A stretch of DNA of 63,423 nucleotides, filler included, from Folioceros fuciformis (Eukaryota), in the NCBI GenBank assembly GCA_049999805.1. It is 3 parts of 2 records of this genome, joined end to end, with 100 filler letters (N's around TTAATTAATTAA, not from the genome) between each part and the next. Parts side by side here need not be neighbours in the genome. Positions count along the whole stretch, not along the records: positions 43,215 to 63,423 come from JBNGIO010006135.1; 2 more parts are not named here. One strand, written 5' to 3'. This document shows positions 14,984 to 63,423 of the stretch, piece by piece. The stretch's first letter is position 1; the number at the start of each line of letters is the position of its first letter. The position numbers and the translations under genes were made by a program. The notes beneath the pieces were generated by a model that worked only from the letters and a program-made list of their open reading frames with translations, searched no databases and was not told the DNA's origin.

Positions 14984-14995
14984 TTAATTAATTAA
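14984..14995. other. Artificial scaffolding linker TTAATTAATTAA inside an N gap
   Basis: The 12-mer gives stops in all six frames and is centred in a 100-base gap. An identical one is at 43159-43170. Confidence 0.9.
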
Positions 14996-15039
14996 NNNNN
15001 NNNNNNNNNNNNNNNNNNNNNNNNNNNNNNNNNNNNNNN

Positions 15040-18449: not shown

Positions 18450-19139
18450 GGCCCTGAGCTGCTACGGAAGAATACTCTGAATACGCTTTTGGACCTCGGC
18501 TTTCATGCTCCCTGCCTCTTGGCCGCAGAAGAAGCCAGCCAGGGAGCAAAAAGGCTCTACGGAATTGCACAATTTTGTTATGGCAGATCTCTCAAAACAA
18601 AAAAGTAGAAGGATGAGGTCACAGTACATGCTAAGCCCTTGGCTTGATAAGGGCAAAGAAGGTTTCCTTCCCATCTTATCGCCCCTACAGGATAAAGCTC
18701 GTTTATTGGCGGCCTGGATGTGTGTTAAGGCCAAGCTACTAACAGTGGGTTCCTGCGGATACAGAATTTTTCATGCCCGTTGTGTTGTGGCTCAAGCCTC
18801 ATTCGCAACCAAGGCAAAATTGAACACAGTGTTCAACCAAGATAGATAGAAAAATAAGATGACTGCATACTTCTATGATCGTTTCAAACCATCCTCAAGC
18901 TGCCAACCCTCCTCAAGCTGCTAGCCAAACATAAGCCTCGCGAATGCACGAGATGCAGCGTTGCAAGACCTGTGGAGAAAACAAAATGGCTGAAAATGAA
19001 CCAGGCCTAGACCCAGTTCCAAGTCTCTCTGGTGATCTGCTGTGTACTATGAGATGCCTTGAGTAGCTTTGTGTAACTCTTCTCCCTCCTGAGTGCAAGG
19101 TGTTAAAAACCTGTACATGCGTTGCCACTCCTCCTTTCT

Positions 19140-30806: not shown

Positions 30807-32512
30807 GGCTGATGGCCGTCAACGCTTGAAGCGGGCGCTGGAACGAGCGAATAACGCGGCAGGAATTAGGCTACCAATACCAAAAAACGGTTACAAGAAG
30901 CGGACAACACAAATCTGCCTCTGAAGCGGCATGCACGACTCGGACTCTCTCCACTGAGTCGTGACAAAAATCTTTGACCCGGAGCTCATATTGTCCTAAA
31001 CAAGCATCACAGCTGCGCACGGCAGTCGCATCCCTGCTAAGAGAAAGAGCTCCACACAGCACCATACCAGGGGGGAACGAGCAGAGCATACAAAAAGTAA
31101 TCCGTATCATCCAGCAAACCGGCTGGAAAAGCACGAACAGTGTCCTAGAAGCAAATCCCACAAGCATACGTCCCCGCTACTCTTGCCGCGTATGGACCGG
31201 ACGATTCGCATCAACATCATTTCAGTGTCCTTGCGGAGGATGACGGACACAACAGCGCGGAGAGCCGCTAAAACGAAAGCATGTCATAGATTCAAGAGCC
31301 AGGACGCTGTCGGCACACAAACAACACCAAACCACAAACCTCTCGAACAAAGGATCGAGGCGACTACCTCTCCTGATCAGTTCCAAGCCGCTCCTTTCAC
31401 AACCTGGTGCAGGCACAGGCTTCCACGGCATCACCCGGAGCACGAGCGACACCAAGTCTCCTGGAATTGGAACAGAATCCACACTCTGCAAACGAACCGT
31501 AGGCAGAAGAAGAGGTTCCTCCACCACGGTCTCCAACAATCCGCCTGTCCAGCAACGTTGAGAGCACGAAGAAGAAAGCCGCTCCCGCGGAAGGCAACCC
31601 TTGCAACGCCGCAAAAGGAATGAATTGAGCCACAGCCCCGTCACTGGCAGTGGCGCACACACCACACAGCACAGGCTTGCTCAAAGAAGCCAGTGAAACC
31701 GGCCACGCCACGAGCACACTCGTCCGCAGCAGCAGGCCCGCGCAATCCCGATTCCCGGGCCGGTGCATGGACGGACCCGGGACCCGCCAACCGGCCTCGC
31801 CCGCCGACATGCACGCTCAATTCAAACTCCATCCCAGAATCAAGCCGTTGGAGCCCGGCGGTCCCCGGTTGCCCGGTTGCCCGGGGGCGGCAGTTAAGGT
31901 CGCAAACGGTCGGCTCAGTTGTGTCAGCGGACGTTACGCAAGGCGTTAATTCTTAACTTCCGTTTAGCTTGGCTGACAAAGAGACGTTCGCCCCAATAGC
32001 GACTCATGCGGCGAGTCCGCCCGACATCGCCATTAAGATAATCGGGTTTCGAAATTCGGGCCCGGAAGAACGTTTGGTCTTCGTACTCCTCGGCTCACGT
32101 ATATGTTCTTCTCTGGTAGCAGGATTTCTCAACAGTCCGGCTTGTTTTACCCCTCTCAAGCAGAATTGCCTGGTGGACTGCATTCCGCGCTCTGCATCTC
32201 TTCCTCCTCTCAATTCTCCTCTGCGAGCTCCTTGTATTGAGGTCGCTATTTCGTTGGGTTGTTGTCGGATTCTGCTCCGAGGGAGCGGAGAATTCAGCTG
32301 GGAGGACTGACCACCGATTTCGGCCTCGGTTTCAATTCCACGGCATAGGTATGCTGTTTTGAGCTCGGCATTGCTGCTTCATGCTCTGGGAGCTGGGGAA
32401 TTCTGCTAGCTTGCTGTGTTGGTAACATCTGGGCACCCTTGTTGCTGCCGGAAAGGCTGAGCTCGGCTTGTGGGTGTTTTTGATTTGTAGCAGAGGCACG
32501 AAAGGAGGGACG

Positions 32513-42997: not shown

Positions 42998-43158
42998 GTG
43001 AGTGAGTTCTGTCACCGTGATATGAAGGTCCCGCTGCTTTGTGTGCTTCTCCACTCGCCTTTCGAACATGCTAGGTTTTGTGATTCTAGGAGGAGGGAAG
43101 GAAAGGTTGGACCTNNNNNNNNNNNNNNNNNNNNNNNNNNNNNNNNNNNNNNNNNNNN

Positions 43159-43170
43159 TTAATTAATTAA
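43159..43170. other. Artificial scaffolding linker TTAATTAATTAA inside an N gap
   Basis: Same 12-mer as at 14984-14995. Confidence 0.9.
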
Positions 43171-43609
43171 NNNNNNNNNNNNNNNNNNNNNNNNNNNNNN
43201 NNNNNNNNNNNNNNCTCAATACCGCATCATGGTATCAGAGCCACCTATAGCGTGGATTGCATTCTAGAGAATGCGCATCAAATTGTGCACATTTGGATGT
43301 GCACAAACATGTGTTTTTGGCTCTTATCTTTTTAGAAATGTTCTTTAAAGATAGCCCAAAATAATCAAGAACTTAAAAACTCTGATTTTCATCTTTATAG
43401 TTGAATTTGCCTGCTTTAAAATTGCATCTTGCAGATATGGTGAGCATTCTAGCGTATCTATGCCAAATTGCTATTCCAGCAATTCTGGAATAGGTGCGCT
43501 AGGACACCCGTCAGATGCTACAACTTGCAATTAGAAGGCATTTATAAAATAAAGAAAATAAGGATGCATTCTAAACGCATCCCTACAATCAGAGTTACAG
43601 CCATCACAA

Positions 43610-44341
43610 ATGGCACAGAATGAAGGCCAGATTTGGCAACCATGGCCTGCTGAGCGGGTTCAGCGTAACCGCCCAACAAGAGGACAGCTTAATGACAGGA
43701 ACGTAGCAGAACGACTTCATCAAAACACACAAGAGTGGCTTTACAGAAACCAAGACAGACCTGCTCACAGGAGTCGTCTACGCGAAGCCCACAATTTGCT
43801 GGTTTCAACACTCTACCCAGATTACCAAAACCTAATTGCTGATTCTCAAGAGCAGGTCATAGGCGCTGATCATTTGAACTTGCGCCCCAGAGTTGCTTTA
43901 GATGTTTACGGGAACCCTAATGGTTTTCTCACAACACAGCCTACACCACAAGCCACAATCACACAGATCATTTCCAGGGTGGAATCACATGCCTTGTTTG
44001 TAGACAGAAGATTTGTTAATCTCAACAAAAGCGTGGCCAGTGTGAATGTGGACTTACAGGACTTGAGGGAGCAACTCTGTCATTTGGACTACAAGTTGCA
44101 CGTTCTTCTGAAGCCAGAACTTTTGAAGAATCCAGAATTCCGCACATTTGCTATAAGATCTGTGAAGTATACTAACGGCAGTCAACGCCTTTATAACCCA
44201 CACTCTTGTCCTTCATGTTCTACCTACGAACTCAATAGGCACATGTCAAGGAAACAGCAAATAGCAGAACAGGAAGCACAACAGGCAGCCAGTTTGCATG
44301 AGGAAGTCAGACCTTTCAACATGCTAGCTGCCCTTTTGTAG
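43610..44341 (+). CDS. Extra ORF (243 aa) between PBS and gag of Copia D; function unknown
   Basis: It is intact from ATG to TAG and ends 53 nt before the gag ATG. It has a heptad-like segment (LNKSVASVNVDLQDLREQLCHLDYKL) and HSCPSC. Confidence 0.7.
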   Translation: MAQNEGQIWQPWPAERVQRNRPTRGQLNDRNVAERLHQNTQEWLYRNQDRPAHRSRLREAHNLLVSTLYPDYQNLIADSQEQVIGADHLNLRPRVALDVYGNPNGFLTTQPTPQATITQIISRVESHALFVDRRFVNLNKSVASVNVDLQDLREQLCHLDYKLHVLLKPELLKNPEFRTFAIRSVKYTNGSQRLYNPHSCPSCSTYELNRHMSRKQQIAEQEAQQAASLHEEVRPFNMLAALL

Positions 44342-44394
44342 CTTTGTCTCTGCATACAGGCCAGTAGTTTTCATTTCCCTCTAGACCTCCAGCA

Positions 44395-47300
44395 ATGGGA
44401 GACACAGCCTCTTCATCATTTGTGGGAGGTGGGGAAAGCTTTAAGGAGAAAGACAGGTTCGATGGATGCCAATATGACATCTGGGTTATGCGCATGAAAG
44501 GCGCACTCCAAAGTAGAAAACTGTGGAAAACAACACAAGGGTTAGATAAAGCACAAGTAGCAGAAACATCTCAGGAAAAGGAGGCACGTGAGCAGAGAAA
44601 TGAAGCTGCTATGTACCTCATAAGAAGTGGACTCACAGCCGACATGATGCATCAAACATCAGGTTGTGAAACTGCTAAAGCAATCTGGGACCGCCTGGAA
44701 GAGCTATATGCTGGAAGAAATTCTGCCAGTCAACTATCAGCCCTTAGTAACCTTCAGCAGTGTAAGATGCGTGAAGGAGAATCTGTAGAGAAGCATATCA
44801 TGACCTTCAGAACCTTAGTCTCCAAGCTAGAACAAGCTACTGGCGAAACAATCAAGGATGAGATGCTAACACTTTACCTGTTACTCTCATTACCTCCCTC
44901 CTGGTCACATTTTGTGACATCAATTCATGCATCCCAGTTACAGGTAGCTAAATTGGCTAAGTTAGCTGACCTCAAAACACCAGAATTAACATTTGCAGAA
45001 CTTGTAGGGTCACTCCTGGAAGAGGAGGCGACAAGAGGTGTATCAGGCAGGCGTGCTGGCAAGCAGCAAGCGCTGTTTACATCCAACCGTGGTCGAGGTG
45101 GTGCAAGACCATACTCCAGAGGCGGTGGATCTGGTTCCTCACGAAGTGGCAGCTCGCAAGGAGGCCACTCATCACAATCTGCAAATAGGAAAAATAAGAA
45201 ATCAGGGACCTGCAACTGGTGCAAAATCCCTGGTCACTGGGAGAGGGATTGCAGGAAAAAGCAAGCAGGCTTACCTTGCAAGGAGGGAAGTACTGAGACT
45301 AATGTTGTGGTCAAAAGGCAACCATCGCCATCAGCGCTCATGGTTGGGATAGAGGGGTATGCTGACTATATCTCTTCACCCACATGTCTGTCAGCTAAAA
45401 CAACTGCTGGACGGTATAAAGAGTGGTACCTTGATACAGGAGCCACTGCTCACATGTGCTTCAACAGAAATGCTTTCAAAACATACAGGTCAGCTAAGGA
45501 CCAGTATGTTTACCTAGGTGATAACAGATCACTAATCTCTCCAGGTATAGGGACTGTTGAGTTGCCTGTGCCTTCTGGAGTCATGCTTCTACTTATGGAT
45601 GTGTATTATGTTCTTGAGATGACACGCAACCTCATTTCTGTTAGACGTCTCAACATAGACAATAACAGTCATATACTGTTCACAAACACAGAGTGTAAGG
45701 TGATAGATGCCTTTAATCCCAGCAAAGTCCTAGCTTACGGGTCCTCAGAACATGACCTGTTTCGCTTGCATACCAAGGGTGAGACAGTGTAGTCTCATCT
45801 CACACATGAGGACTCCCCTGCCTCTGCACAACAGATAGCAAAGACTAAGTTGTGGCACGCACGTCTAGGTCACCCACACAGCAGCAAGTTGCAGATATTA
45901 GCTGCTAGTGACCTCTATGCTGATGGTTCTATAGGCAAGTTAGTACCCTTACCTCTTTGTGAGCCATGTGTCCTGGCTAAGTGCCATCAAGCAGCTTTCA
46001 AGAATAAAGCTCCTCACAGGGCTTCAGAAGTCCTGGAGCTGGCTCACACAGATCTGTGTGGCCCCTTGTCTAAGCCTTCTCTTGGTGGTGGGAGATACTT
46101 CCTTACCTTCACAGATGACAAAACACGTTTTGTCAGTGCTTACATTCTTAACGCTAAAAGTGATTGCTTCTCACACTTCAAAGCTTACCTTAAGTTTGCA
46201 GAACGCTGGACAGGGAAGCAATTGAAAACCCTACGTTCAGACAACGGTGGGGAATTTACCTCACATGAATTCCAGGCTTTCTGCACTGAAGAAGGAATTG
46301 GTCGGCAGCTAACAGTTGTGTATACCCCTCAACAGAACGGGGTCGCAGAGCACATGAACCTTACTTTGCAAGAGATGACCTCCTCATTGTTGAACCATGC
46401 TCACCTCCCTTTGTCCTACTGGGAAGAGGCCCTCACAACTGCTGTTTACCTAAGAAACAGGTTGCCCACTAATGTTGTCCAAGGAATGACTCCCTACGAA
46501 GCATTTTATGGACACAAGCCCAAGATCCTTCATCTCAGGACATTTGGCTGTGTAGCTTATGCCTTTGTTCCTAAGAAAAAGCGCAAGAAGCTGCAGCACA
46601 AGGCCAGAAAGTTGCTGATGTTAGGTTATACTGAAGGCATCAAGGCATATAAACTGTATGATGTGCCTACAAATACTGTTACATACTCCAGGAGTGTTAC
46701 CTTCGATGAACACAGTTTCTGGCCAGTGGGAGCTTCTGATGACACTGATTCTCCAGATGACAATTGGGAATCTCTTGACCAGGATGTCTCATATTTTGAT
46801 GGCCTCCCTGCGGACGTTGCTCCTGCAGGTGGGGAACATCAGGATCCGCCCACACATGAGGATGAATCTGCACATCAGGATGAACCTGAATTTGACGTTG
46901 CTGATCTAGTGCAGCAGCAACATCCTCGTGAGCCCTTACCTCCACTTGATGAGGAAGAGGTCATTGCAGTAGAGTCTGATTCTGACGATGCTGCAGATGA
47001 GGTCGCTCTTGACATCCAGGAACCACAGTATGCGCAGCCTGATCCACCTGCTGCTCCACCTGAACCCCGTTATCCCCAGCGTGAACGTCGTCCTCCCAAC
47101 CTCTATCAATCTTTTGATTTCAGGTCACCTCAAGCACATGCTGCTTTACTTGATCCCCTTGAACCACAGTCATATGAGGAAGCTCTCCGGAGGCCTGATT
47201 CTGCAGAATGGAAGAATGCAATTCAGGCTGAATATGACTCATTGATTAAAAACGGGACTTGGGAATTGGCCAAGTTACCTCCAGGTCGAAAGATGGTATC

Positions 47301-48749
47301 CTGCAAATGGGTATTCAAGCTCAAGGTCAAAGCTGATGGTACTTTCGACAGATATAAAGCTCGGCTAGTTGCACGAGGCTTTACACAAGTACCAGGGCTT
47401 GATTATTTTGAAACATACGCACCTGTTGTAAAGATGGCCACCTTTCGTACCATATGTGCTATAGCAGCACACAAAGACTACGAATTGCAGATGTTCGACG
47501 TCAAGACAGCCTTCCTACATGGAAGGCTAGACACTGAGATCTACATGCAGCAGGGGGCTATGAGGTAAAAGGGAAAGAGGACCATGTCCTGCAACTTATA
47601 AAAACGCTGTATGGCCTCAAACAGTCAGCACTAAAGTGGAATGAGGCTCTTGATGAAGTGGTTCTAGCTTTAGGCTTCATCAAGTGTAAGGCTGATGGGA
47701 GCCTCTACGTATACAGGAAAGGGGACACTTTATGCTATTTAGCAGTCTATGTGGATGACCTGATCATAGCCTGCAATAGTGGAGCATACATAACCAAGCT
47801 CAATCTATTACTGGCAGAGAAATTTGAGATGACCAATCTAGGTCCTCTGCAGAGTTGCCTAGGGGTTCACATACAAAGGAACAGGGACAAGAGGGTCATA
47901 ACCCTTACCCAGCCTAAGTACTTACTTGACAGTGCAGAACAGATGGGTTTAAAAGACGCGAAACCTGCTTCTACCCCACTACCTACAGGACTCAAGCTTA
48001 GCCGCAACATGTGCCCTGAGACACAACAAGAGAAAGAAGCTATGAGTAACATCCCATACAGAAGAGGAGTTGGTAAATTAATCTATGCTTCTAATACAAC
48101 TAGGCCCGACATTTCTTTTGCCACTAGCTGCCTGTCCCAGTATCTTGAGAATCCAGGGCAGGAGCATTGGCAGTGTTTGAAAAGGGTATTCAGATACCTA
48201 AAGGGGACCTATGATGTGGGACTTAAGTATGAATATAGTCCCGAGGCTCTAGACCTAGTAGTTTACACAGACTCTTATTATGCTGGTGATATTGACTCTA
48301 GAAGGTCAGTGTCAGGCTATGTAGTAAGCTTTGCTGGAGGGCCCATATGCTGGAGTAGCAAAAAGCAACCCACTGTAGCCACCTCAAGCACAGAGGCTGA
48401 GTATCGGGTGTTAACAGCAGCAGCTAAGGAAGTAATCTGGCTCAAACTACTGTTCAAGGAAATGGGACTGAACCTTTCTACATGCACAAGTGTTAAGACC
48501 GACAATCAGGGCTCTATGGCACTTGCTAAAAACCCAGTGTTCCATTCAAGGATTAAACATGTTGAAGTAGAGTACCATTTTATACGGGAACAAGTGTCTG
48601 CAGGCAAGATTGTGCTAGAATATGTTCCCATAGCTGACAACCCTGCAGACATACTTACGAAAGCACTGGGGAGAGACCTGCACACCAGACACCTAAAAGG
48701 TCTAGGGTTAGGGAAGTCTGAAGACTTCTTGCAACCTCACAAAGTCTGA
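44395..48749 (+). pseudogene. Copia D gag-pol, disrupted by one in-frame TAG (45790-45792) and one frameshift (~47555)
   Basis: Motifs: CNWCKIPGHWERDC knuckle, WYLDTGATAH protease, WHARLGH and RSDNGGEF...QQNGVAE integrase, YKARLVARGF and YVDD RT, and an RNase H ending ADILTKAL. Confidence 0.95.
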
Positions 48750-49814
48750 AAAACATAAAAGGCTATGCCTAGTAATCCCAGCTGCCACGAGAGCTGGAAT
48801 TGTTGCTTTCCACCTGAATCGAATCAGGGGTCTTGGGGGAGTTGTCCTCATCACTGTCTGAACCACTGAATCTTGTCTCTGGCTCACTGCTGTTGGTGAA
48901 GCTTTCGCCAGACTGTGAGCTGTGGCTTTTAGAAAATGCAAAGCGAACTTCCTCACGAATTCGCTGTTCAGACCCTGCATATGGTGACAGCAACAGTATT
49001 GTTACGAGCAGTGGGAGCAAGGCATAAACATGACTGCTAAACGGCAATCTACACATACGTAAATCACATGAAGGACGTTATACTTACAGTAAAAGCTGAC
49101 TATGTGCCCTGGAAATTCTTTGCAGGGCTTCACCTTGACCCGCTTCATAAGGATGCGGCTGAAACGGCATCTGTATCATAGCGAGGTGCCAGGATTGCGC
49201 ATGCTTCCCAAACCCACTATCTTAGTTTCCTCCAGATAGTTGATCACTTTCGGAAACAGCAGGGGATTTGGAAGCTGGCCTTCAGTCTTAGCATATTCGT
49301 ATTCAGGCTCTGAACGGGCACCTCTGGCAGACCTGGAACTTGAAGCAGCATGCCGAGACGGCTCTGGCATCACAGTCGTAACAGCTATCTCGCAGCCTCT
49401 CGCAGATCCTCTTCCTCGGCCGCTGCCCCGGGGACGACCTCTCGGACGTTTAGCTGGTTGCTCTTCAGATTCGCTTGTGTTCCTGACAGGTGTCCGAGCC
49501 GCTTTGGGTGCGAATTGCCCCTTGCTGTTACGCACATAGGTGCGCTGCTTGTGGGGCGCTGCATCTTCAGAGGAAGACGGCATCTTGAGCAGGAAAATCT
49601 CGAGCCTGAGCTGAACGATAAGCGAAAGGGTGAAAACGAGGTTTAAAAGGGAGGCGCACCTCAGTACGAGGGACTGCATGCTGGCTGCCTCCATAGCACC
49701 TCCAAGCGTGAGATAGATCGTAATGGATTGCAGCGTACGCAGAAGTGAAGGCACCGAAGCTGAAGTGACAGTCACAAGGGGCACGAACTGAAGTTCTAGA
49801 AGACTGTTAACCAC
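48708..49814 (-). CDS. Antisense accessory ORF of Copia D: open 49176-49814, continuing in frame past two stops to 48708
   Basis: It has an AT-hook-like KRPRGRPRGS and YVRNSKGQFAPK. Past the TGA at 49176-49178 the same frame reads ...YVCVDCRLAVMFMPCSHCS*QYCCCHH... Confidence 0.55.
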
Positions 49815-49838
49815 TCAACTTGCTTCAACAAGTGGGAG

Positions 49839-50066
49839 TGACGAAATAAGGGTTGTTAGTGTGTTATCAGCATGTTAAGTAGTTAAGTACATTAAGTTAA
49901 GTTATATCAGCTTACCCTTTCATTAGGCTTACGTCCTTTAGATGAACAGTCATACCTTTTCAGGTTTTTAGTTTTAGTTTGCTTTTCTGCATAAGCACTT
50001 ACCTTTCTTTAATGTATGTAAGATGCAATTATATTAATTGATCTGCGTTATCTCAATACCGCGTCA
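49839..50066 (+). repeat. 3' LTR of Copia D (228 bp)
   Basis: It has perfect inverted termini TGACG...CGTCA and follows the PPT directly. Confidence 0.92.
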
Positions 50067-50149
50067 TTAAGGACAATTTTGAGAGGTACTGATGATTGCT
50101 GATGATTGTTGGTAGGGGCAACTAGCCTTGTCCAAGGGGTAGCAAGAAA

Positions 50150-50285
50150 TTAGGGTTAGGATTAGGTTAGAGTTAGGCTTGGCTTAGGTTGCTCTTAGGA
50201 TTAGGTCGAACTAAGATTAGGTCAGAGTTAGGGTTAGGTTAGGTCAGAATTAGGTTTAGGTCAGAGTTAGGGCGGCTTAGGTTAG
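50150..50285. repeat. Degenerate TTAGG/TTAGGG-rich repeat tract
   Basis: ttagggttaggattaggttagagttaggc...ttagggttaggttaggtcagaattaggtttagg. Confidence 0.7.
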
Positions 50286-50809
50286 AGAGAGATTGCTAGG
50301 CGGTTGACTGAGGCTAACCCTAGTAGACAGAGATGGGGGTTTGGGCCAAGGGTAGTATAAGAGGCTAGACCTGCCATTGAGGAGGGGTAGTCTTATGGTG
50401 TGATTCCCCTTGACCTTGTGTGCAGGCTACCGGATTAGAGTGGCTGATCCGGTTTGAGACTAACCAAGGGCTTGATCCCCTTTGCCATTAGGGGGACGTA
50501 GTGGATCCCTAGACTACTGAGATTCGTGTGGCCGGATCCGCAATGGCTGACCTCCTTGCATGCTAACTGAGGTAAGGTTGCAGGGCCGTGAGCCAAGAAG
50601 GCTATCCAACCCTCTGCCTTGAAGGCTGCAAGGGGGAAGGCTGTTGTGTTCCAAATTCCAGGAGAGAAGGGTTGAGTTGCATATTTTGGGAGTGGAAGTG
50701 TTGAGGTGAGGAGTGGAGCTGAAGTGAGGTGCTAGAGTGTGAAGTGAAGTGCTAGAGTGAAGGACTGAAATGCTGGAGTGAAGTGCTAAAGTGGTGGAGT
50801 GGGGTGCTG

Positions 50810-51130
50810 AAGCTGGAGTGAGGAGCTTGCTGAGTTTGAGGGCTCCGTTCAGCTATTGAGGTAGTTAACACTAGGTGCTGAGAGTTGGAGGCCGGCGGGT
50901 GCTGGAGTCTCCTTTCAGCTGCAGAGGTGGCCGGAGCTCGGGTTGAGAGTGGAGGCCGAGGTTGGAGCCGAAGCTTCCTCTCAACAGGTGAGAGGGCCGA
51001 CTTGGAGCTGAGAGTTGGAGGCCGGACCTGGGGCTGGAGTCTCCTTTCAGCCACTAAGGTGATTGGTACTTAGAGCTGGAAGCGGGAGCTGAAGACGATG
51101 CTGGAGTTCTCATTCAGTTGAGGCTGGGGT
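50810..51130. repeat. Degenerate tandem repeat of ~60-63 bp
   Basis: GCTGAGAGTTGGAGGCCGG...GCTGGAGTCTCCTTTCAGC recurs at ~50878 and ~51007, with diverged units between and beside them. Confidence 0.65.
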
Positions 51131-52004
51131 TAACATTGTGGTAGAAGTTGAAGACAGGGCTGGGGATTCTGACCTATTGCTGTAGCACTAGGTATTGGCT
51201 GATAGATAGGATGAGATTAGGGAATTGTAGGAAACCTTGACACTAGTTCACTCCCTTGGGAGCGAATCATAAGACTGCAACGATAATAAGGGGAAATGTG
51301 GCCCCTTGGTGGTTCTTGGGTGTAAGAATCACTTCACAACGTGCAGGCATAGGAGGTCCCTCCTCCCTTATTCCCCTAGTTACTCGTCGTGTCCAAAATT
51401 TGAGTGTGTGCAAGAGTACCTTCCAATTGAGATCCCCGTGCTGCCAAGGAGGGTAGCGTGCGTGGGAAGCTCCTAGGAGGGGTCGAGAACGCTACTCTGC
51501 AGCTGGTGGTGAGGGGGACGAAGCTACAGAACCTGCGGCAAAGGGAGGTCTGTAGAGGAAAAAAATATTCAAAGTCCCCTTTTTGAGTGACGGAAGGTCT
51601 GGACTTTGTTTTTTTTTTGTGAAAGTATGAGGAAAACGGCTTAGTTTGAGAATAATACTTGGGTATTTATACCCAAAGTCTCCTTGGACCATGGTGTTTT
51701 GGGCGGACTGGGCAGTCGGACCAAGTGTCTGGAAGAGCAGGGTCGTCCTTGGCCTTTGGTGGAGAGGGGGGTACCAAGAGGTCTATATATGCACCCCCTT
51801 CCCTCTCAAAATAAAGAAATAAGAAAGGGTCCTCAGAGTAGGTAGTTGTGGACCTAGGCTAGAAAATAGGAATGTGTGACTCAGCGACGGTGGTGGAAGC
51901 TAAACCACCATCGCGGAAAGCCAAACGGTGGTAGAGCAACCGGCGGTAGCGGAACCCTAAGAGAAAAGTCAAGTTAATTTTCAAACAGGAGCGCAACCGG
52001 GGGA

Positions 52005-54353
52005 GTGGAGGGCGACCGAAGTGGACGAACGACGGGCAAGAGCGTAACTGCGGCTAGCACAGGCAAGAGCGACGACGATCGATCAGGAGAGCACGGAGCA
52101 GCGGCGACCGAACCCGCGACAGGCAGACATAAGGCCCAGGGAGAGATGGCGCGTGTGAGAGGAGCATCGCGGCTGATATCGGGAGATGGCACACAGGAGC
52201 AACCTCCTGCACCAAGGGTCGAAACAGCCTTCTGGCCAAACATGGAGCACTTGCGGGTCAGGGCCGAAGGGCTGGTGGAGGAGTTGGGCCTCGGATTCAT
52301 GACCCAGCGCTGGAATCATGCAACTCCAGGCTTGGTGCAGGAGTGTGCTCAGCAACTGAGGAGCCCGGCCAGAGAAGAGGGGATCCGAGGGAACTCGCAG
52401 GAGTGGAACCTGAACATGGTGAGGAGGGTGTATGGATGCAGCATGGAGGAGGAAGGAGGGCTTGTCCTCGAGTCCCTGAAGAAGAGCACGACAGCAGCGG
52501 CGCTGGCGCTGTTCAAAACAGGAACCATGAGGGAAGCCAATGGATGGGTTGGCCAGGGATCTAGCGACAGCCCAGTTGATGGGACTGGCGAGGTGGCTCC
52601 TCTGCTTCCTACAGATTCGGAAGTAGGACTACCTCTTTGACTAGATGCTGTTATTCGTGCATGAGGTGGTCAGGGTAGCTGGGTGGATTGGGGCAGGATC
52701 CTGTATGACAGGATGAGGGAAGAGAGGCAGAACCTGGCCTCGTACTCACCTTGACCATCTCTGATTTCTCCATTTCTTGCTCATTTCTATTGCCATGCTA
52801 ACCTTCTGACTGAGGTGGAAGTAATCGCCTCATTGCACATGTGGAAGCCCCTTAGGGAGATAAAATGGAAGCCTGTGGAGCCAAAGGAGGTGGACTCCAG
52901 TAGCTGGGAGGCTGAGGGGACAAAGAGCTCAGAGGAGGAGACCCCATCCAGCACGAAAAGGAAGGTAGGGACAGGACTGAGGACCCTTGCCAAGCGGAGG
53001 AGAAATGTCAGCCAGGTCACTAGGAGAACGGGGGAAGCTGTGCAGCAAGAGGCTGTCTAGGAGCAGGCCAAAAGGGAGCAGGAGGTGCCCCACGAAAAGT
53101 GGCCAGAGGAGGATACGACTGCGGCAGACGTGGAGGCCGAGTTAGGGCCGGCTCAGGTACAAGAACCCTTCCCAGGGTGGGAGGGGATTTTTAGGAGTGG
53201 CCCTTTGACAGCCAGGCTGCAAGTGGAGAACCTGGCGAGGGTTCGGGAGATGCTAGGACAGCAGGTCATCAAGAGGAGAATGCCTTCGGAACGCGAATCG
53301 CAGCAGGTGGACCTGCTAGGCTTGACCGCGGAGATGGTTCAGGCCCAGGCAAAAGTGTTGGACCAAGCTGCCAGGGCTTTGACCTGGTTAAGTATGCAAG
53401 GTGAGAAGGAAGCCGAGAGCCGGGAAAGGTTAGCCGAGTCAGAGGCAAGTTGACAGCTCTTGGAAGAGACCCGACAGACCTTGAGTGCGGCCAAGGAGCA
53501 GGCAGAGGAGGAAACCTGCCAAGCAAGGAGGCAGGTACAGGCGCTGAAGGAGCAGCAAGAGACGCTCCTAGCTCAGGTGAGAGAGGCCCATGGGACTAAC
53601 CTAGAGATGCAGCAGGAGGTCTTAAGGGCCCATGAGCAGGAAGCATCTACGGTGGAGCGAATGCACAAGCTGGCGGAGAGATATAAGCGGGAGCGGGACG
53701 AGGCCCAAGACAGAGTGAAGGGGAAGGCCTAGGCCCAGCGGAGTAGTCGAGTTGCAACGCCGGTAGGTGAAGAAGCTACCGGTCGTGGAGCGGCAATGCC
53801 GGTAGCTGAGACCCCAACCCCGGTACCTGAAGAGGCACTCGCTAAGGAACCTACCGTTCGAAGGTCTTGAAGAGCAACTCCCACCAAGAGGGCGGGGCAA
53901 GGAGGAACTACAGCTGGAGGGATGGAAGATCCTCCAGCGCCTCCAAGTGACAGAGGGCAGACAGCCCGGAGTAGCCCACGGGAGGAGGGGGTAAGCACTT
54001 CCTTTGCAACAGAGGGTCGGATTGTGTTGCACTACCCAAAGGAGGACACTTATGTGCCCGGCCTCTATGTGGATGGAGCCCGTGTGCTGAAGTTAACTGT
54101 ACATGTGCGTGTGGGCATAGGAGGGACAAGAGGCTACTGCCTGCAGCTAAGGACCTGCAGGGGGTCCTTCTTCCACTGCTGTCGGGTGTGGGGGCTGCCT
54201 CGCTACTATGCCAAAGCAATCCTGGAAGAGCTGACAGAGGAGGAGGCGCAAGCATGGGTCGATCGGGAGCCAGTGCTTGTCCTCAGCAACCAGCCATGGG
54301 AGGCGAGGAGGAGTCCTCCGCAGCGGGACCCACCTACGCCGCCGCTGCCATAG
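52005..54353 (+). pseudogene. Degenerate extra ORF of Gypsy element E (helical domain, coiled coil, conserved C-terminal domain)
   Basis: Consecutive same-strand ORF pieces (52005-52640, 52815-53060, 53085-53453, 53460-53732, 53922-54353) are separated by single stops or frameshifts. Motifs include VDWGRILYDRM and SPFLAHFY. Confidence 0.7.
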
Positions 54354-54564
54354 GTAAGGAGTGACAGTGAGGTGGAGATCCTCAGGGAGGATCTGTCCGA
54401 CCAACCGTAGGGAAGGAGAGCCTAAGGTGGGCGGCTAGGAGGAAGAGCAAGAAGGCCGGAAGGAAGGCGGGCGCGGAGATGAAAATAGACGATAGTAATT
54501 GCATCCTAGATTCGAATCTTAGAAAATCTCTAGGAAATGCAACCCTGAGAAGTATGAGGGGCGA

Positions 54565-54980
54565 TTGGATTGCACTTGGGACTGTGAATAGAACCGCGGA
54601 GTGCCGCGGGATCGACGTGTGTTAGTTAGGCATCGGAGGTGGGTCCCACCTCGGTAGCGGAGTCGACTACCGGTAGTAGAAGACCCGTCGGTAGCTGAAG
54701 GGTCGGTAGTTGTAGAGCCCCCTACCCCGGTAGCTGAGCGAGTCCCGGAGGCGCAGAGTTGGGTGGCGGTAGTTAGGCCATCTGGGGGTAGTGGTAGTGG
54801 AACCTGGAGGTAGCGGGTCTAGACATAGATAAGGATTGTCCTAGGTAGTAACTGACTTTTGAAGGAAACCCATGCTACTTGACACAAATCATTCCTTTGG
54901 GATCGAATCCCTGAGCTATAACGACAAAGAGGGCTTGTGTGGACCTCGCAGCACCCCCGGGTGCAATATTTTCCCCCACA
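54565..54980 (+). repeat. Gypsy LTR copy (3' LTR of E); start approximate
   Basis: It aligns by eye with 61100-61493 (e.g. CACAAATCATTCC.TTGGGAT.GAATCCC, TTGTGTGGACCTCGCAG) and ends in CA. Confidence 0.75.
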
Positions 54981-56150
54981 AGGTCTCTCCTCCCTTATTC
55001 CCCAAACTAATTGCCGCATTTCGAAATTCTGATTGAGGAAGCACGTAAGCGAGGATGAAAGAGTGAGATGAGTGAGTTGGATGAGTTGTGTGAGTGAGTT
55101 GAAAAGAGAAGAGAAGGAGAGTAGAGTTGAATGACCTCCTTGGTCTGAGGGGGCAAAATATCAAGAATGTTAGGTAGGTGCAAGGAGCAGGAGAAAATCG
55201 GTTTAGAGGATCTAGTTGAAATAACTTGAGTGGTCACAATCAATCAGGTGGAGAAGTCTCACAAACTGTTAGAGCTACACACAACAGACTGAAATGCTGA
55301 AATCGATAAGTTGAAGGTGGCTAGCATCTAGAACAGGAGAGTCAAGATCAAGGAGGTTAAGACAATGGAGAAAACGTAAGGAATAAGTGAAGCAGAGGCT
55401 TATAAGGAATTTCAGTTGGATGCAGTTGTTTGCGAGGTGGACATTGAAGATGTATTGAAGGTAGAATCTGTACAAAGAAAGTACAACACAAGGTTTGGAG
55501 ATCAGAATAAGGATTATGGAAGGACGTTGGCGGTAGGATGGAAGTATCTAAAATCATTTGAGGTTTTTAGATGTGGATGTAAAAGATTTTAGTAAGAAGG
55601 TGCGTGATAGAGAAAGGAAGGTGATAGATCAACAGGGGAGTATAAAGACACAGATGTTGCAGAGTGATTTGATTTGCTATATTCGAAGCATGTTGGAGAT
55701 GGGTGTCAAGGTGGGAGTGAGCGAAACAAAAATTCGAGATCTTTTGTAGATATCAGATTAGTCTAACGAGAGTAGTAAGTTGGACAAGCGATTTCATTCT
55801 ATTTAAACAGTGATTATCAAGATAATGAAGAAAGGTTGACAGTTAGACCTGGAATTGCATTTTTGGATACCAATGGATGAGGCTGAGGCAAGTCAGCAGT
55901 AGCAGGAGGAGATTCGGCAGACCTTGAGTGCAGCAAAGGAGCAAGTAGAAGAAGAAGCCTGCCGAGCTCGAGAGGAAATGCAGATGTTGAAGGACCAGCA
56001 GGAATTGCTCCTGGCTCAAGTAAGAGAAGCCCATGGGACCAACCAAGAAATGCAGCAGGAGTTGCTAGGGGCCTAGGAATAGGAGGCGGCTGCAGTGGAG
56101 AAGGTGCAAAAGCTAGCAAACAGGTACAAGCGGGCACGGGAAGAAGCCCG

Positions 56151-59100
56151 TGAAGAATCGCTACAGGAGCTACATGGTGAAGGAGGAGAGGCAAGGAGGA
56201 GGAGAAAGGAGAGGTCACACTCTCACACAGAGTCTCAATATGCAAGGGAGATCAAGGGGGTATTTATACCCTCTAGAAGAGCTCCCTAGAAAGCTTCACA
56301 AGAAGCACACAGGAAGTTGCGCAAGAAGCTTCCTACAGATTAACTTAAGCTAATCTAAACTAATGATACTTAATTAGATACTAATCTTAGACTAAACACA
56401 CTAGTCTAAGCACATTGGGCTTTAATAACCCTACAACCTCCCACTTAAAGGCTAATTTACCTTCATAGGAGAGTGGTCTACCTCATGCCCATGAGTGTCC
56501 GAGCTTGTGCGAATTGCTCCGTAGAGAGCCCCTTGGTAAGAACATCTGCAAGATTTTGACTGGTGTGAACTTTGGCAAGCTGTACCCTCTTGTCTTCCAA
56601 CACCTCCCAAATGAAGTGATACTTCACTTCCACATATTTGGTCTTTGCATGAAATACTGGATTCTTCGCCAATTGGATAGCACTCTGGGTATCACAATGC
56701 AACACTAGTAGCTCAACCTTGATCCCCAAATCTCCCACTAAATGAGCAAGCCACATGGCTTTCTTGCAAGCCTCAATCGCTGCAATATACTCAACCTCTG
56801 TGGTAGATAACGTTATGTACGATTGCAAACGAGATCGCCATGAGACTGCCCCTCCAGTGCACATGAAGACATAACTTGATGTGGACCTCCTTTTGTCCAT
56901 ATCCCCTGCATAATCAGCATCCATATATCCCATGACAGATGCATCGTCACTACCAAAACATAAGCACAAAGCTTTCGTACCATTCAAGTACCTCATAACT
57001 CCTTTCATTGCCTCCCAATGCTTCCTGCCAGGGTTTGACATAAACCTGCTAACCACTCCCACTGCAAAGGCAACGTTAGGACGTGTAGCAACCATTGCAT
57101 ACATCAAACTCCCTACAGCTGATGAGTATGGAACCTTCTCCATTTCAGCTTTGTCCTCCGTAGAACTGGGGCAATCCTTGCTCGACAGTTTCACATATGG
57201 AGGCAACGGAGTACTCAATACCTTCCCCTTCTCCATATTGAAACGTTGAAGCACCTTGTTAATGTATTCAATCTGAGACAAGTCCAGCAAATGCTTCTCT
57301 CTGTCTCGACGAATATGCATGCCAAGAATATGGCTTGCCTCTCCCAAGTCTATCATGTCAAAGCGAGCATTCAACTTTGACTTCAACGCCGAAATCTCAT
57401 CACTATTAATCCCAACAATTAGCATATTATCCACATAGAGGACCAGAATGAGCAAGCTTCCATCCTTAGCTTGCTTCGTATAGAGGCAATGATCCTTCTC
57501 GCTACATTTGTAGCCTTGAGAAAGCATAAACGAGTGGAACTTGTAATACCACTCCCTGGGTGCCTGCTTCAAACCATAAAGGCTCTTCTTTAACCTGCAC
57601 ACCAAATTCTCTTTGCCCTTCTCAATGAAACCCTCTGCTTGCTGCATGTATACCTCTTCCTGGAGATCACCATGTAGAAATGCCGACTTCACATCCATAT
57701 GGACAAGTTCCATGTCGTTCCTCGCAACTAGAACAAGAACACATTGTAAGGTGGTCATTTTGACAACTAGTGAGAAAATCTCATCAAAGTCAATACCTTG
57801 CTATTGCTTTAAACCCTTAGCAACCAATTGTGCCTTGTACTTGGGTTTGCCATAATGGGGTATGTCCTTCACCTTATACACTCATTTGCATGGCAACGCC
57901 TTCTTGCCCTTAGGCAACCGAACTAACTCCCAAGTTTGGTTCTTATGGAGCGAATCCATTTGTGTCTACATCGCCTTCTCCCACTTTTCCTTGTTAGTCA
58001 CTGACATGGCCTCTTGATAACAAGAGGGCTCCTCACAATCCGTCAGCATGACATAATCAAGAGATGCAACATACCTGTTAGGAGGACGTGAAGTCCTTCC
58101 TGACCTACGAAGCACTGGCGCCTCGAACGGAGCTGGTTGCACTCTCTCCTCTTCTACAAGTGGAGGCAGTTGTTCCTGGACATCACGATGTTCAACCTGC
58201 GCGGGACGGTCAAATCCATCTTCTTAGAAGACCACTCATCGCACCTCCATAGTTGGAGTAGGCTTCTTGTGCATCTTGGTCTCATTGAAGAACACGTCAT
58301 TGCTGCGAACAACCCTCTTGGCCTCTGGATCCCACAGACGGTATCCCATCTCACCAGATTCACCATAACAAGAAAAATACATTTTCTTGACTTGGGAGCC
58401 AACTTGTTCCAAAACTCCTTCGGAACATGGTAGTATGCCTCGCAGCCAAACACTCGCAGATGCTTGTATGACGGCTTCTTTCCAGACCACATCTCCTCTG
58501 GAACTTGCTCATCCACAGCCCTATTAGGAGATTTGTTAATAAGATGCACCGCAGTAACCACTTCTTCTGCCCAAAATCCGTTAGGCAATCCAGAGTTTGA
58601 CAACAAACTACGCATCCTCTCCTGGATGGTCCTGTTCATCCATTTAGCCACACCATTCTGGGGAGGAGTCTACGGGGCAGTCAACTCTCTCTTGATTCCC
58701 TTGGAATCACAAAATGACTGGAAAGCCTTCAAAACATATTCTCCCCCATTGTCTATCCTTAGACGCTTCAGTCGGAGGCTAGACTGATTCTCCACAAGGG
58801 TGACGAATTTTTGAAACACTATCAGAACATCATCCTTTTTCCTCAAAGGATAAACCCACACCTTGCGTGAGAAATCATCTATAAAAGTGACAAAATAGAT
58901 GCACCACCTAACGATACATTGGACATAGGTCCACAAACGTCACTGTGAACCAACTCAAGAGGTTTACTTTTGTGTTTACCTCTTGCTCCATGTGGTGACT
59001 TCATTTGTTTCCCATATAAACAGTGCTCACACATGGAGAAATCGGAGAAGTAAAAAATAGGGACGTAACCAAAACGAACTAAGATCTTCATTCCTTTTTG

Positions 59101-59429
59101 AGACATATGTCCTAAGCGACAATGCCACAAGGAAACACTTGGCTGTTCCGTTACACAAATCATGGTGAAGGAGGAGAGGAGGAGGCAAGGAGGAGAGGAG
59201 AAAGAGAGGTCAAACTCTCATACAGAGTCTCAATATGCAAGGGAGCTCAAGGGGGTATTTATACTCTCTAGAAGAGCTCCCTAGGAAGCTTCACAAGAAG
59301 CGCACAAGAAGCTGCGCAAGAAGCTTCCTACAAATTAGCTTAAGCTAATCTAAACCAATGATACTTAACTAGACACTAATCTTAGACTAAACACAGTAGT
59401 CTAAGCACATTGGGCTTTAATAACCTACA
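56151..59429 (-). mobile_element. Ty1/Copia element F (Tnt1/Tork-like), internally deleted (no PBS, gag or protease), with a 5-bp TSD
   Basis: The TSD GCCCG is at 56146-56150 and 59430-59434. The 3' LTR is 56151-56435 and the truncated 5' LTR is ~59161-59429. The PPT AAGTGGGAGGT is on the minus strand at 56436-56446. Integrase fragments and an RT-RH ORF are present. Confidence 0.95.
56478..57758 (-). pseudogene. RT-RNase H portion of Copia F pol
   Basis: Motifs: HMDVKSAFLHG, LKKSLYGLKQAPR, LYVDNML (catalytic DD changed to DN), VPYSSAVGSLMYAM and NLADVLTK. Confidence 0.9.
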
Positions 59430-61099
59430 GCCCGGAGCAGGGTGAAAGGAAAAGGCAAGGCCAGATGAAGTAGCCGAGTTGCGGCGGAGGTAGCTGAAGA
59501 GGCTACCGATCGAAGAGAGACCATGCCAATAGAGGAGAGCCCAACCAAGGTAGAGGAGGGCAACAACCGTCGAGGAACCCGTAATCCGTAGGGCTGGGAT
59601 GGCAACCCACACCAGGAGGACGGAGCAGGGTGGAGCAGTAGCTGGGGGGATGGAAGATCTTCTACTGCCATTGGAAAGCAGAAGGCAAGCAGTTCGGGAT
59701 AGCCCACGGGAGGAGGGGGTAAGCACCTCATCCGCAACAGAGGATTAGATTGTATTGCAGTATCCAAATGAGGCCACTTATGTTCCTCGCCTTTATGTGG
59801 ATGGAGACCATGTGCTAAACTTAACTGTCTATGTGCATGTGGAACTAGGAGGGACGAGGGCCAACTGCTTGCAACTAAGGACTCGCAGGGGGTCCTTCTT
59901 CCACTGTTGTCGAGTGTGGGGGCTGCCTCCCTACTTTTCACAGGCAGTCCTGGAAGAGTTGACGGAGGAGGAGGCACGGGCATGGGTTGAGCGGAGCCTG
60001 TGTTGATCCTCAGCAACCGGCAACGGGAGGAGAGAAGGAGTCCCCCTCGACGGGACCCACCCACGCCACCACTGGAAAGGTCAAGCAGCAGCGGCAAGGT
60101 GGAAATAATCCAAAGTGTATAAGAGGCATGTTGGTGCCTAACTCAGTAGCAAGAAATCAACGTTCCAAACTCGAGGAAGCTTGGCGAGGCCGTTGCCGGA
60201 CAGGGAGATCTGGGCAAGTGAGTGCGTGCAGTGTTCCTAGGTGGTGGTGTGCGAGGTTTCTTTGCTTTGCGACGGGTGGTTCGGGGGACAAATCAGGAGG
60301 AGGCTCCTCACTGAGTGGAAGGCAAACGTCCCTGCTATTCCTGGTACTTCGTATTGTGTGTCGCAGTAGGAGCGATGGGGGATGAATCCGCCGATTGCGG
60401 AGTGGAATTGGGCACTTGCTTCCCTTATTCCCTGGCTTTCCATCTGCTCTTCAAATAGCGGGTGAAAAGTGAGTTAAGGTGAAGGTGGGCTGCGTGTTGG
60501 AGTCGGAGGAGAGAGACAAATCCGCTGATCGCGGAGTGGAGGGAGATTCCATCCCTCCCTTATTTCCCAACTGTTGGTTGTGACCCGGTCCTAGCATTGG
60601 AGTGAGTAAGTGTTCGAGTGAAACTAGTTGAGAAGGAGAAGCGAGTGAGTGAGTGTGTGAGCTGAGAGGTGAAGGTGAGAGATCGCGGTGTTTGCAGGGA
60701 GGGAGGCAAATTCGCCGACTGCGGAGAGGAAGGAGTGTCTCTCCTTCCCTTACTTCCCGAACTGTTGACCGTGAATGAGTGTGCTGTGAATGTTGAGTAT
60801 CTGAGAGAATGTTGAGGTGGTGACGAAGTTATTGAGAAATCGCTGAAGGAACTTTGAAGTGTGGGAAATATTGTCCCAAGTCTATGGTATGAGAGACTGT
60901 TGGAAGGTTGCTTGGGGGTCATGGATGTTGTTAAGGACAAGTGTGGGCTGTGAGGAGTGACTGTATGTTAGAATCGGCATGTGTGGAAGTGCTGTGTGGG
61001 TGTAAGGTGTGTACGCTCATGGAGTCAGACTGTCTAAGTATGTAACTGTGGGGTGTTAAGTAACTTCAACGCGCTACCCTGGGAAATCGGGCAAAAACC

Positions 61100-63423
61100 C
61101 CCGAGTAGAAACCCGCGGTGATACCAGGAACAACATGTGTTAGTCAGGACGTTGGGGTGGGACCCACCACGGTAGCGGAACCCGCTGCCAGTTGTGGAGA
61201 CCCCTACCGGTCGTAGAGGAGCCAGTAGTTGTAGAGGCCCCTACCTCGGTGGTGGGGTGAGGGTTGAAGCCGCGGAGTTGAGTCTGTGGTAGCTAGGCCA
61301 CCTGAGGGGTAGTGGACCCTGTAGGTAGTGGAACTAGGGTAGGTAAGACCTGACCTAGGTAAGAGTCGATTTTAGAAGAAACCTGTGTTACTTGGCACAA
61401 ATCATTCCCTTGGGATTGAATCCCACGGCTACAACGACATAGAGAGTTTGTGTGGACCTCGCAGTACCCTCGGGTACAACATTTTCCTCCACATTTTGGC
61501 GCCGTTGCCGGGGAATGTATTGCTTTTAAGAACATAGGTAGGAGTGACTAACACTTGAATAGAGAGTCTAGGTAGTGATAGGTTGATGGATGCCTTGAGT
61601 GAAGACCAGCGACTCTGAACCTGATCCTGCAGAACCACTGTTGGTAAGACGGCAACATCAGGCGGCGGAGAGATTGCAGAGAGTCGCAAGGAGATCGCAG
61701 CAAGAGAACATGCTTGCTGAACGGGAGAGAGGGACAAGGGATTAGCGCATAGCTGAAGGCCAGACTTCGTCTGAGTTAGATCTACAACCCTCGGGTTGGG
61801 AGGAGGTATCTGGGCCCAAGTACCCCGATCCAAGCCCGCTGGTTGATCTCCATTCCAGGTTGCCTTGCTCAACTTCAGTCCAGACAAACTTCGTAGGAGT
61901 AGAGGTCAGTTCAGGCGTGGTAGTTGCATCTGCTACTACAGTCGTTGCAAACACTACTACGGTAGCTATGACTACTACTCTAGTAGCTGTGACTACTAAG
62001 CAATCCTACCCGCTGTATGGGGAAAAGAAAGGATATCAGGACCCTGATGACTTTGTTGAGCGTTTTGAGCAATTAACGATTGCCAACCAGGAGGCAGGGG
62101 ACGCGCAACATGTTCAGCTGTTCTATCGAGTCTTGCGGGGAGTTGCAGCCAAGTAGTACAAGCAAGAGTACCTCAAGTCATCTACTCCACCAACCACCTT
62201 TGACTCGCTCAAGATAGCTTTCTGTGAAAGGTTCCGAGGGGTGGATGTAGAAGGTTATGTTCTGTCCAAACTTGAGAGGCTGCGGCAGAGGCAGAAGGAA
62301 ACGCTGCAAGCTTATGTGGAGCGGTTCCGCAGCTTGCAAGACCGAGCCGGCCCCATTCAGAACTTATGGCTATACCTTGGTTTGTAAGAGGCCTGGGCAC
62401 GGCGATGGGGAAGCATGTGCGCTTGTAGGTAGAAAAGGATTTGGAGCGAGCAATACGGGCCGTGCTAAACTATGAGTCCAACGTGGAAGCGAGGAAGAAA
62501 TCGCGAAAAGAGGAAAGGAGAAATTGCAAGGGGAAGAAGGACCACATGAGGAAGAAAAAAAATATATTCCTCGTCCGCAGAGGATGATTCAACGGAGGAG
62601 GAGAACTCCTCTAGGGATTTCTCAGACAGCTCGTTAGCGGAGGATCTGCCCAGCTCTGAAGAGGATTCGTCCGGCGGTGAACAGAGTCGGAAGAAAAAAA
62701 AGAAGTTGCCGAAGTCTGGGTTGGAACGAAAGCGCCATCCCAAACGCAAGGAGCTGGTGAAGCAGGAGGTTGTGAGCACAAGAAGGGACGCTGAACAAGC
62801 AAGGAAGGAGGTGGAGTTGGCAACCAAGAAGGCGAAACAACATGGAAACAAGATGGAAGAAATAGTGGCCAAGTTGGAGAAACTCCACATCAATGTGGTG
62901 AAGGATCATGAGAGGCGGAGAGTCGCGACAGGAGGCAGAGAAAATCTCTACTGCTCAACTTGTGGACAACAAGGACACTCGAGAGCGAGTTGTCCACAAG
63001 TGAAGGTGCAATTGATGGACTACGAGGAAGGAGAGGAAGAAATGTACCTGGAAGACATCTACCAGATCAAAGAAGCAACGCTGATGTCGGGATACCTAAA
63101 GACCTCGTACCCTCCAAATTTACGAAACACTACGACCATGGGAATGCGAAACCAGGCGGCCAGGGGCTCTGGACAGTTAACTACCATCTAGTGCAACAAC
63201 TGCCAGGGAATCGGCCACTTTGCAAGCAGTTGTCCTTCAGCGACGCGACAAGGGAATGGTGATTATGAGAGGTTGTGCATGGACTGCAAGCAGACGGGGC
63301 ATGTCACTGGAAGTGTTCTCTGCTCTGCGCCAAAGAAGGATGTGAGGATTGCTCAGACTCCGGTGACGGTAATCCAATCATTTGGGGCAAATGCAGCATC
63401 TGCGGTGCAGGTGGAGGACGCGC
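61100..63423 (+). mobile_element. Gypsy-type element G (Athila-like PBS): 5' LTR, PBS and decayed gag; runs off the window end
   Basis: The LTR ends CCTCCACA at 61493. The PBS TGGCGCCGTTGCCGGGGA (tRNA-Asp type) is at 61497-61514. A gag-like DPDDFVERFE...LRGVAAK*Y is followed by the knuckles CSTCGQQGHSRASC and CNNCQGIGHFASSC. Confidence 0.88.

Follow-up and report, generated by a model that had tools for sequence, protein, structure and literature searches.

The window analysed here is a stretch of 63,423 nucleotides from Folioceros fuciformis (GCA_049999805.1, an assembly of 87 Mb in 7240 contigs), in which positions 43215-63423 represent one contig (C6135, JBNGIO010006135.1). This contig harbours a retrotransposon of the Ty1/copia type, as indicated by the order of its parts (gag, protease, integrase, reverse transcriptase (RT), ribonuclease H (RNase H)) and by the presence of a long terminal repeat (LTR), a primer-binding site and a polypurine tract. 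Between the stop codon of the Copia pol (48749) and the polypurine tract and 3' LTR (49830-50066) lies the antisense gene that is the subject of this work, with the following features:

49584..49694, minus strand: optional N-terminal extension with a hydrophobic helix, from an in-frame ATG at 49694
49088..49583, minus strand: main coding exon, which opens with a conserved MSS-type ATG (49583) and runs up to the splice donor
49503..49538, minus strand: R[DN]xxGRF-type motif, YVRNSKGQFAPK
49407..49451, minus strand: AT-hook-like motif, KRPRGRPRGSGRGRG
49089..49310, minus strand: conserved core of about 75 residues, a predicted five-stranded beta domain
48975..49087, minus strand: predicted 113-nt phase-1 intron (GTAAGT...TATGCAG), which holds a Cys-rich reading and TAA 49002-49004
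48769..48974, minus strand: last exon, a conserved Glu/Arg block followed by a Ser-rich acidic tail

The region after the MSS ATG is Ser-rich, basic and of low complexity, with Arg-rich and RG-repeat stretches. The gene ends at TAG 48771-48769, which leaves some 20 nt to the pol stop. TGA 49176-49178 falls within the core, and the window copy of the gene is broken by it. An earlier note on this DNA, made from the sequence alone, had proposed an antisense DNA-binding, zinc-binding protein here. The motifs that it listed (YVRNSKGQFAPK at 49538-49503 and KRPRGRPRGSGRGRG at 49451-49407), the stops TGA 49176-49178 and TAA 49002-49004, and the in-frame CVDC, CSHC and YCCCHH translation are all present as it described them.

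The gene was then compared among the copies in the genome. The N-terminal part used as protein query gave 51 matches and the core of one copy gave 104 (75 without internal stop, 29 with stops). Loci were fetched for most matches, and a profile placed the core in 88 distinct sequences. These were de-duplicated by sequence and a few may come from the same place, so that the 27 families are the safer unit.

Protein conservation ended abruptly after a VSxY motif in all families. One base past the Tyr codon of this motif, GTAAG (56) or GTGAG (16) was found in 72 of the 88 sequences, against a background of 0.29% per site in the same loci. The codon across this donor was AGT, CGT or TGT in 75 of 85 cases (Ser, Arg or Cys); since it gives different residues, the constraint is at the nucleotide level. 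For the acceptor, the next conserved block was located without requiring an AG (n = 39). AG ended exactly 11 nt before this last-exon block in 31 of the 39 copies and 10 nt before it in six, and the 11-nt spacing is the phase that restores the reading frame. Where both sites were placed, the intron measured 76-215 nt, with all three classes modulo 3 represented, and in none of the 39 copies could the last-exon block be reached in frame without splicing. Counted by family, a GT donor was present in 24 of 27 and the acceptor was placed in 22 of 27. The donor exceptions were single copies with GC, AT or GG, and one five-copy family (L112, L113, L117, L121, L125) that speaks against splicing, as TTAAG replaces its GT donor while the acceptor and last exon are kept; this family may use another donor or may be dead for the antisense gene.

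These splice sites change how the Cys-rich stretch is read. In the window it lies between the GTAAGT donor (49087) and the CAG acceptor (48975), which are conserved across families, and it is therefore not a feature of the protein. The acidic SGSDSDEDNSP stands in another frame of the genomic DNA, as reported earlier, but there is no frameshift: because the intron precedes it, the tail is simply the next exon. A single-frame protein with a Cys-rich zinc module, interrupted by two stops and a frameshift, can draw on the translation that exists in the window copy and on the core, where one His column is conserved at 96% and two Cys columns at 66% and 69%. However, reading through the donor gave products that differ from family to family in length and Cys spacing, with frequent stops, and none of the 39 reached the tail; intron DNA of this element family encodes, whichever frame is read, some 8 Cys in 100 codons; and whole families lack the first core Cys. 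With no invariant Cys in the core and the Cys cluster intronic, the zinc-finger reading fails, and the single-frame version is highly improbable. The stop within the core is not fixed, as the stop-free majority of core matches shows.

Coding constraint was evident in both exons. In a tree-based codon model, omega (the ratio of nonsynonymous to synonymous substitution rates) was 0.225 over the 36 of 68 cores that were free of stops, and 0.125 over 23 last-exon starts chosen by motif. Variability was 0.59 at third codon positions, against 0.37 and 0.26 at second positions. Stops numbered 22 in the coding frame of the core (69-295 in the other frames) and 29 in that of the last exon (71-334 in the others). 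Pairwise Nei-Gojobori (NG86) dN/dS values of 0.35-0.83 were noisy and included frameshifted copies. Eight sequences appeared undisrupted in both exons and had canonical splice sites. By these sequence measures, both exons are under purifying selection. A gene without a protein product, that is, a spliced non-coding antisense RNA or mere conservation of DNA beside pol, would fit the many broken copies (29 of 104 core matches with stops), and the accessible part of PMC7264820 reports antisense non-coding RNAs in retrotransposons. This explanation is nevertheless very hard to reconcile with omega values of 0.13-0.23, the third-position excess, the depletion of stops in one frame, the kept intron phase and a confidently predicted fold. 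We conclude that the antisense gene is, with high probability, a spliced protein gene.

RNase H could be placed in 67 of the 88 sequences; in all 67 it lay downstream of the antisense gene and in opposite orientation, while in the fetched stretches of the other 21 it was not located. Core and RNase H distances were correlated over the 27 families (Spearman 0.43, permutation p 0.0005), and mean identity between families was 41% for the core and 71% for RNase H. The antisense gene is a family trait of a Copia clade, co-inherited with pol, and it has so far been seen in one genome only.

The core was also present in other Copia clades of this genome. Weak core matches at the equivalent place were found at six of 20 loci of distant Copia elements, with an RNase H 50-56% identical. 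Searches then gave 42 core matches for clade B (L187-L205), four of which were cross-matches to the first group, and 33 for clade C (L206-L225). Profile comparison tied clades B and C each to the first group with modest significance (probability 83, E about 1e-5). Clade B, with an RNase H 40-58% identical to that of the window, had an intron at the equivalent position and phase (GT at 18 of 19 loci, YAG at 19 of 19), while clade C had no intron at that position. Clade B also seems to have additional upstream exons. The three clades were separated with starred support in an RNase H tree of 58 rows, from which 5 selected rows had been left out because their matches were short. Nine rows had no recognised core, and the majority of these carried insertions or truncations downstream of pol. 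One sub-clade nested among the carriers had an unrelated antisense open reading frame (ORF) in the same slot:

L149:713-1327, L151, L152:703-1326, L153, L154, L156:711-1388, antisense to pol: replacement ORF with a hydrophobic start and a helical body

This ORF gave no significant Pfam match. As a different ORF occupies the slot in this sub-clade, the core is replaceable.

AlphaFold2 modelled the core exon, without the last exon, as a five-stranded all-beta domain (L057 copy with 15 natural cores; mean pLDDT (predicted local distance difference test) 85.9, pTM (predicted template modelling score) 0.73); over five core models, pLDDT ranged from 86 to 51. The fold had no match at E <=0.001 in the PDB and BFVD, the best VIA Z score being 3.0. 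Patterns like those of a WRKY-type beta sheet or a U-box/RING caught the eye, but neither was listed in the Foldseek and VIA-align searches with the core exon.

Sequence searches gave no homologue either. None was found among 5.8 billion proteins, searched with alignments A1 and A5 and limited to lengths of 30-329 and 30-153, in PDB sequences (one match at E 0.2 was rejected), in PHROGs and the ESM Atlas, or in viral contigs searched with one pattern only. Pfam scans of 15, 12 and 11 members and of longer frames were without match, Transposase_28 (PF04195) included. Among 1.84 billion representatives, two matches were rejected since both were repetitive proteins over 20-36 positions; in metagenome contigs, a single 18-residue match was rejected as well (a contig of 69% GC without Copia protein). 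Of 7999 candidates scored for RT-RNase H, the closest relatives were 41-50% identical, so close relatives of these elements seem to be absent from the databases and the blank searches say little about how widely the gene is distributed.

The basic N-terminal region bears two short motifs. R[DN]xxG[RKQ]F was present in 52 of 82 copies (strict pattern), and a GRP[RK]G-type motif in 36 of 82; RGRP proper occurred in 21 of 82, the position often being VGRP, CGRP or absent. AT-hooks have a (P)RGRP core flanked by basic residues. The window copy has this core, as the earlier note pointed out; a Pfam scan of longer frames gave no AT_hook match at E up to 10. The likeness to CCT and NF-YA holds for the shared GRF end; Pfam gave no CCT or NF-YA match (longer frames, E up to 10), and the helix that docks NF-YB/YC was not seen. 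What stands of the proposed antisense DNA-binding protein is a real conserved gene with a basic N-terminus, RxxxGRF and a GRP motif; zinc binding is not supported.

In most families, a hydrophobic helix in the same frame precedes the MSS ATG and starts from an earlier ATG. In 42 sequences this segment had 21 stops in frame, whereas the two other frames had 80 and 121, and its hydrophobicity peaked at about 2. Omega was about 0.6 and the codon-position pattern was weak. Three multi-copy families have the helix frameshifted, and gag-pol is intact in one of them; a donor-like AG/GT starts the segment in most families. The segment may be a signal anchor, a retained short intron, or both. A membrane-associated accessory protein made from the upstream ATG, with a role in particle assembly, nuclear-envelope passage or movement, would account for the few in-frame stops in most families, and in the nested sub-clade the unrelated ORF that fills the slot likewise begins with a hydrophobic stretch. 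In a variant of this reading, splicing or use of the second ATG would turn the anchored form into a soluble nuclear one. The out-of-frame helices, the high omega with its weak codon pattern, and the donor-like AG/GT at the start of the segment argue against both, and even taken jointly they are unlikely.

The element that hosts the antisense gene was annotated as follows:

43215..43229, plus strand: final 15 nt of the 5' LTR, matching the end of the 3' LTR; the contig start at 43215 cuts the rest
43230..43241, plus strand: primer-binding site, TGGTATCAGAGC, identical in L057, L059, L068, L071, L073 and L076
43610..44341, plus strand: ORF0, a second extra gene, which precedes gag and encodes a CPSC motif close to the C-terminus
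44395..48749, plus strand: Copia gag-pol (gag, zinc knuckle, protease, integrase, RT, RNase H)
49830..49838, plus strand: polypurine tract-like sequence, AAGTGGGAG
49839..50066, plus strand: 3' LTR of 228 bp (TG...CA), with a 98% identical LTR at G000:C5954

The primer-binding site is presumably of the tRNA-Met type. Pfam domains in gag-pol were Retrotran_gag_2, Pol_BBD, rve, SH3_retrovirus and RVT_2; the window gag-pol is broken by a stop (45790-45792) and a change of frame near 47538-47568. ORF0 gave tblastn matches at 18 loci of the same Copia clade (33-77% identity), for example L059:5677-6381, L068:6846-7550 and L071:1044-1865. It has a coiled-coil-like middle, and a Pfam scan gave no significant match. 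The Copia clade of the window element therefore carries two accessory genes, ORF0 in sense and the antisense gene. CTCCCAC, a motif complementary to the polypurine tract-like sequence, sits 241-285 nt upstream of the antisense ATG in many copies. Contigs of sequencing run X1 (its RNA nature is a guess, and strand and start cannot be read from it), compared at 80% likeness with window 43215-63200, left 47217-49884 uncovered, which speaks neither for nor against transcription.

TTAAG (50067-50071) follows the window 3' LTR and is also found as the five bases before the lone 98% identical LTR (L004, G000:C5954), the other flank of which differs (AAAAG); this pattern is possibly the product of recombination between elements. 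Degenerate TTAGGG-like repeats occupy 50140-51900, where X1 contigs reach a depth of 250-570; this region is a high-copy or expressed repeat and was the target of the Copia insertion. Head-to-tail tandem elements with a common LTR were seen at L057 (G000:C4366:1-9999) and L073, and contig C4366 holds a 3074-bp repeat, 100% identical, which is either real or an assembly artefact.

Elsewhere in the window, N runs at 14940-15039 and 43115-43214 surround TTAATTAATTAA-type linkers and mark contig joins, the flanks of which are not contiguous. Host genes encode a nucleoside transporter (17058-18461, minus strand), a C2H2 zinc-finger protein (22280-23380, minus strand) and a multi-C2 protein with a plant PRT_C domain (32426-35425, plus strand). 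This plant-type gene, together with the CHG-biased decay of the elements, marks the genome as that of a plant. Copia fragments of other families comprise a gag (1059-1886, minus strand), an RT (56478-57800) and decayed repeats within 53436-61493.

Judged from its sequence motifs, a nuclear nucleic-acid-binding role for the antisense protein is plausible. As its main role we tentatively favour that of a chromatin-binding regulator that would sustain the element in trans. The conserved splice sites suggest that the opposite strand is transcribed and spliced. The gene would then have a transcript of its own, made by RNA polymerase II from a start close to the 3' LTR, much as reported for Grande gene23. 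Reverse transcription would leave the intron in place, since the genomic RNA carries it in antisense orientation. The presumably disordered basic N-terminus resembles a nuclear localisation signal and, with RxxxGRF and GRP as minor-groove-type motifs, would provide for nuclear entry and for binding to DNA or chromatin. The folded beta core would be the part retained across the three Copia clades, and the acidic Ser-rich tail could serve to bring in factors of transcription or chromatin. Broken copies such as that of the window would be supplied with protein by intact ones.

Several observations weigh against this role. The DNA-binding interpretation rests on two short motifs, and RGRP is found in only 21 of 82 copies. 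Transitions, compared between one young copy and nine relatives, were 0.146 at CG, 0.107 at CHG, 0.052 at CHH and 0.040 at A/T, which does not suit strong anti-silencing: the CG and CHG excess indicates that the elements have been methylated, so any protection would be incomplete or confined to active phases. Tandem Repeats Finder detected in five elements only repeats of 2-4 copies (score up to 58), and no arrays of the VANDAL type. The in-frame hydrophobic helix of most families fits a membrane role, and the nested sub-clade has an unrelated ORF in the slot of the core. The most elaborate form of the proposal, which combines an undescribed beta fold, an ancient spliced antisense gene, a chromatin factor (anti-silencing or tether), a membrane-nuclear switch and an independent counterpart of VANC, seems rather doubtful as a whole.

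LEDGF is the host tether that links the integrase of human immunodeficiency virus to chromatin, and the antisense protein might be an integration tether of its own, which would contact DNA through the basic and AT-hook-like motifs and integrase or ORF0 through the beta core, linking the pre-integration complex to chromatin. The layout (a basic region like a nuclear localisation signal, an AT-hook-like motif and a separate folded domain), the Copia integrase without a targeting domain in Pfam, and the tandem and nested insertions observed would suit such a function. The core, however, diverges faster than pol (41% vs 71% identity between families), and we consider a tether improbable. An RNA-level role is likewise of low probability. 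The Arg-rich and RG-repeat stretches speak for it, as does the position of the antisense stop, which in undisrupted copies mostly lies 20-45 nt from the end of RNase H, such that the two transcripts would overlap; ideas of this kind are raised for antisense ORFs in the accessible part of PMC7264820. On the other hand, RxxxGRF and GRP, the basic motifs with the strongest conservation, are reminiscent of DNA minor-groove motifs, and the Pfam scans matched no RNA-binding family.

Among known systems, the closest in position is the group of antisense ORFs called aORF-3R or eORF-3'R, which includes maize Grande gene23, rice RIRE2, Silene Retand, PvRetro13 and Botrytis Boty; the likeness is in position, orientation and presence in most copies (accessible parts of PMC7264820 and PMC11963269). 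According to the former, the function of the ORFs in Grande, RIRE2, Retand, PvRetro13 and Boty is unknown and spliced antisense transcripts are to be sought, while Grande GENE23 is a nuclear protein with a promoter of its own. In the REXdb table of PMC6317226, so far as this source was available, eORF-3'R occurs in 47-86% of Athila, Ogre and Retand, in 1% of SIRE and in none of most copia lineages, with ambiguous cells of 2-6% for Bianca and Ikeros; the survey scored only ORFs of at least 250 codons. The present gene differs in its Ty1/copia host, its conserved predicted intron, its exons of fewer than 250 codons and the lack of a match to Transposase_28 or any other Pfam family.

The earlier note had drawn an analogy with VANC. 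In the available text of PMC5735166 and PMC13547354, VANC is described as dicot-specific, MAIN-like in structure and anti-silencing for VANDAL (Mutator) elements. Both genes are transposon-encoded, intron-containing accessory genes with conserved and variable regions. However, the VANDAL/Mutator host is a DNA transposon whereas the host here is a Copia, no tandem target arrays occur in the five Copia elements, no VANC/MAIN-type match was found in Pfam or PDB sequences, and none was listed in the core-exon fold searches (best Z 3.0). The analogy can thus be one of role at most.

At the level of short motifs, the window copy shares only the PRGRP core with AT-hook proteins, and its R-x3-GRF spacing with the GxGGRF of NF-YA, which contacts DNA according to the accessible part of PMC11719662. 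With regard to retroviruses, no sequence or fold relation links the gene, hosted by a plant Copia, to HBZ of human T-cell leukaemia virus type 1. The HBZ transcript is spliced. HBZ is similarly an antisense gene driven from the 3' LTR side, and it encodes a nuclear regulator (PMC11963269, in the part available).

A literature search, with most subscription journals outside its coverage, found no paper on a spliced antisense gene in a plant Copia. What the antisense extra ORFs of plant LTR retrotransposons do is not yet settled, and a predicted spliced case is now added in Copia. Such ORFs have been thought rare in Copia; the domain described here spans clades with RNase H differing by about half. 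Surveys based on ORF length (at least 250 codons) can miss spliced accessory genes of this kind. A single genome offers natural comparisons: some clades have the intron, another lacks it, and in a sub-clade the slot is taken by a different ORF.

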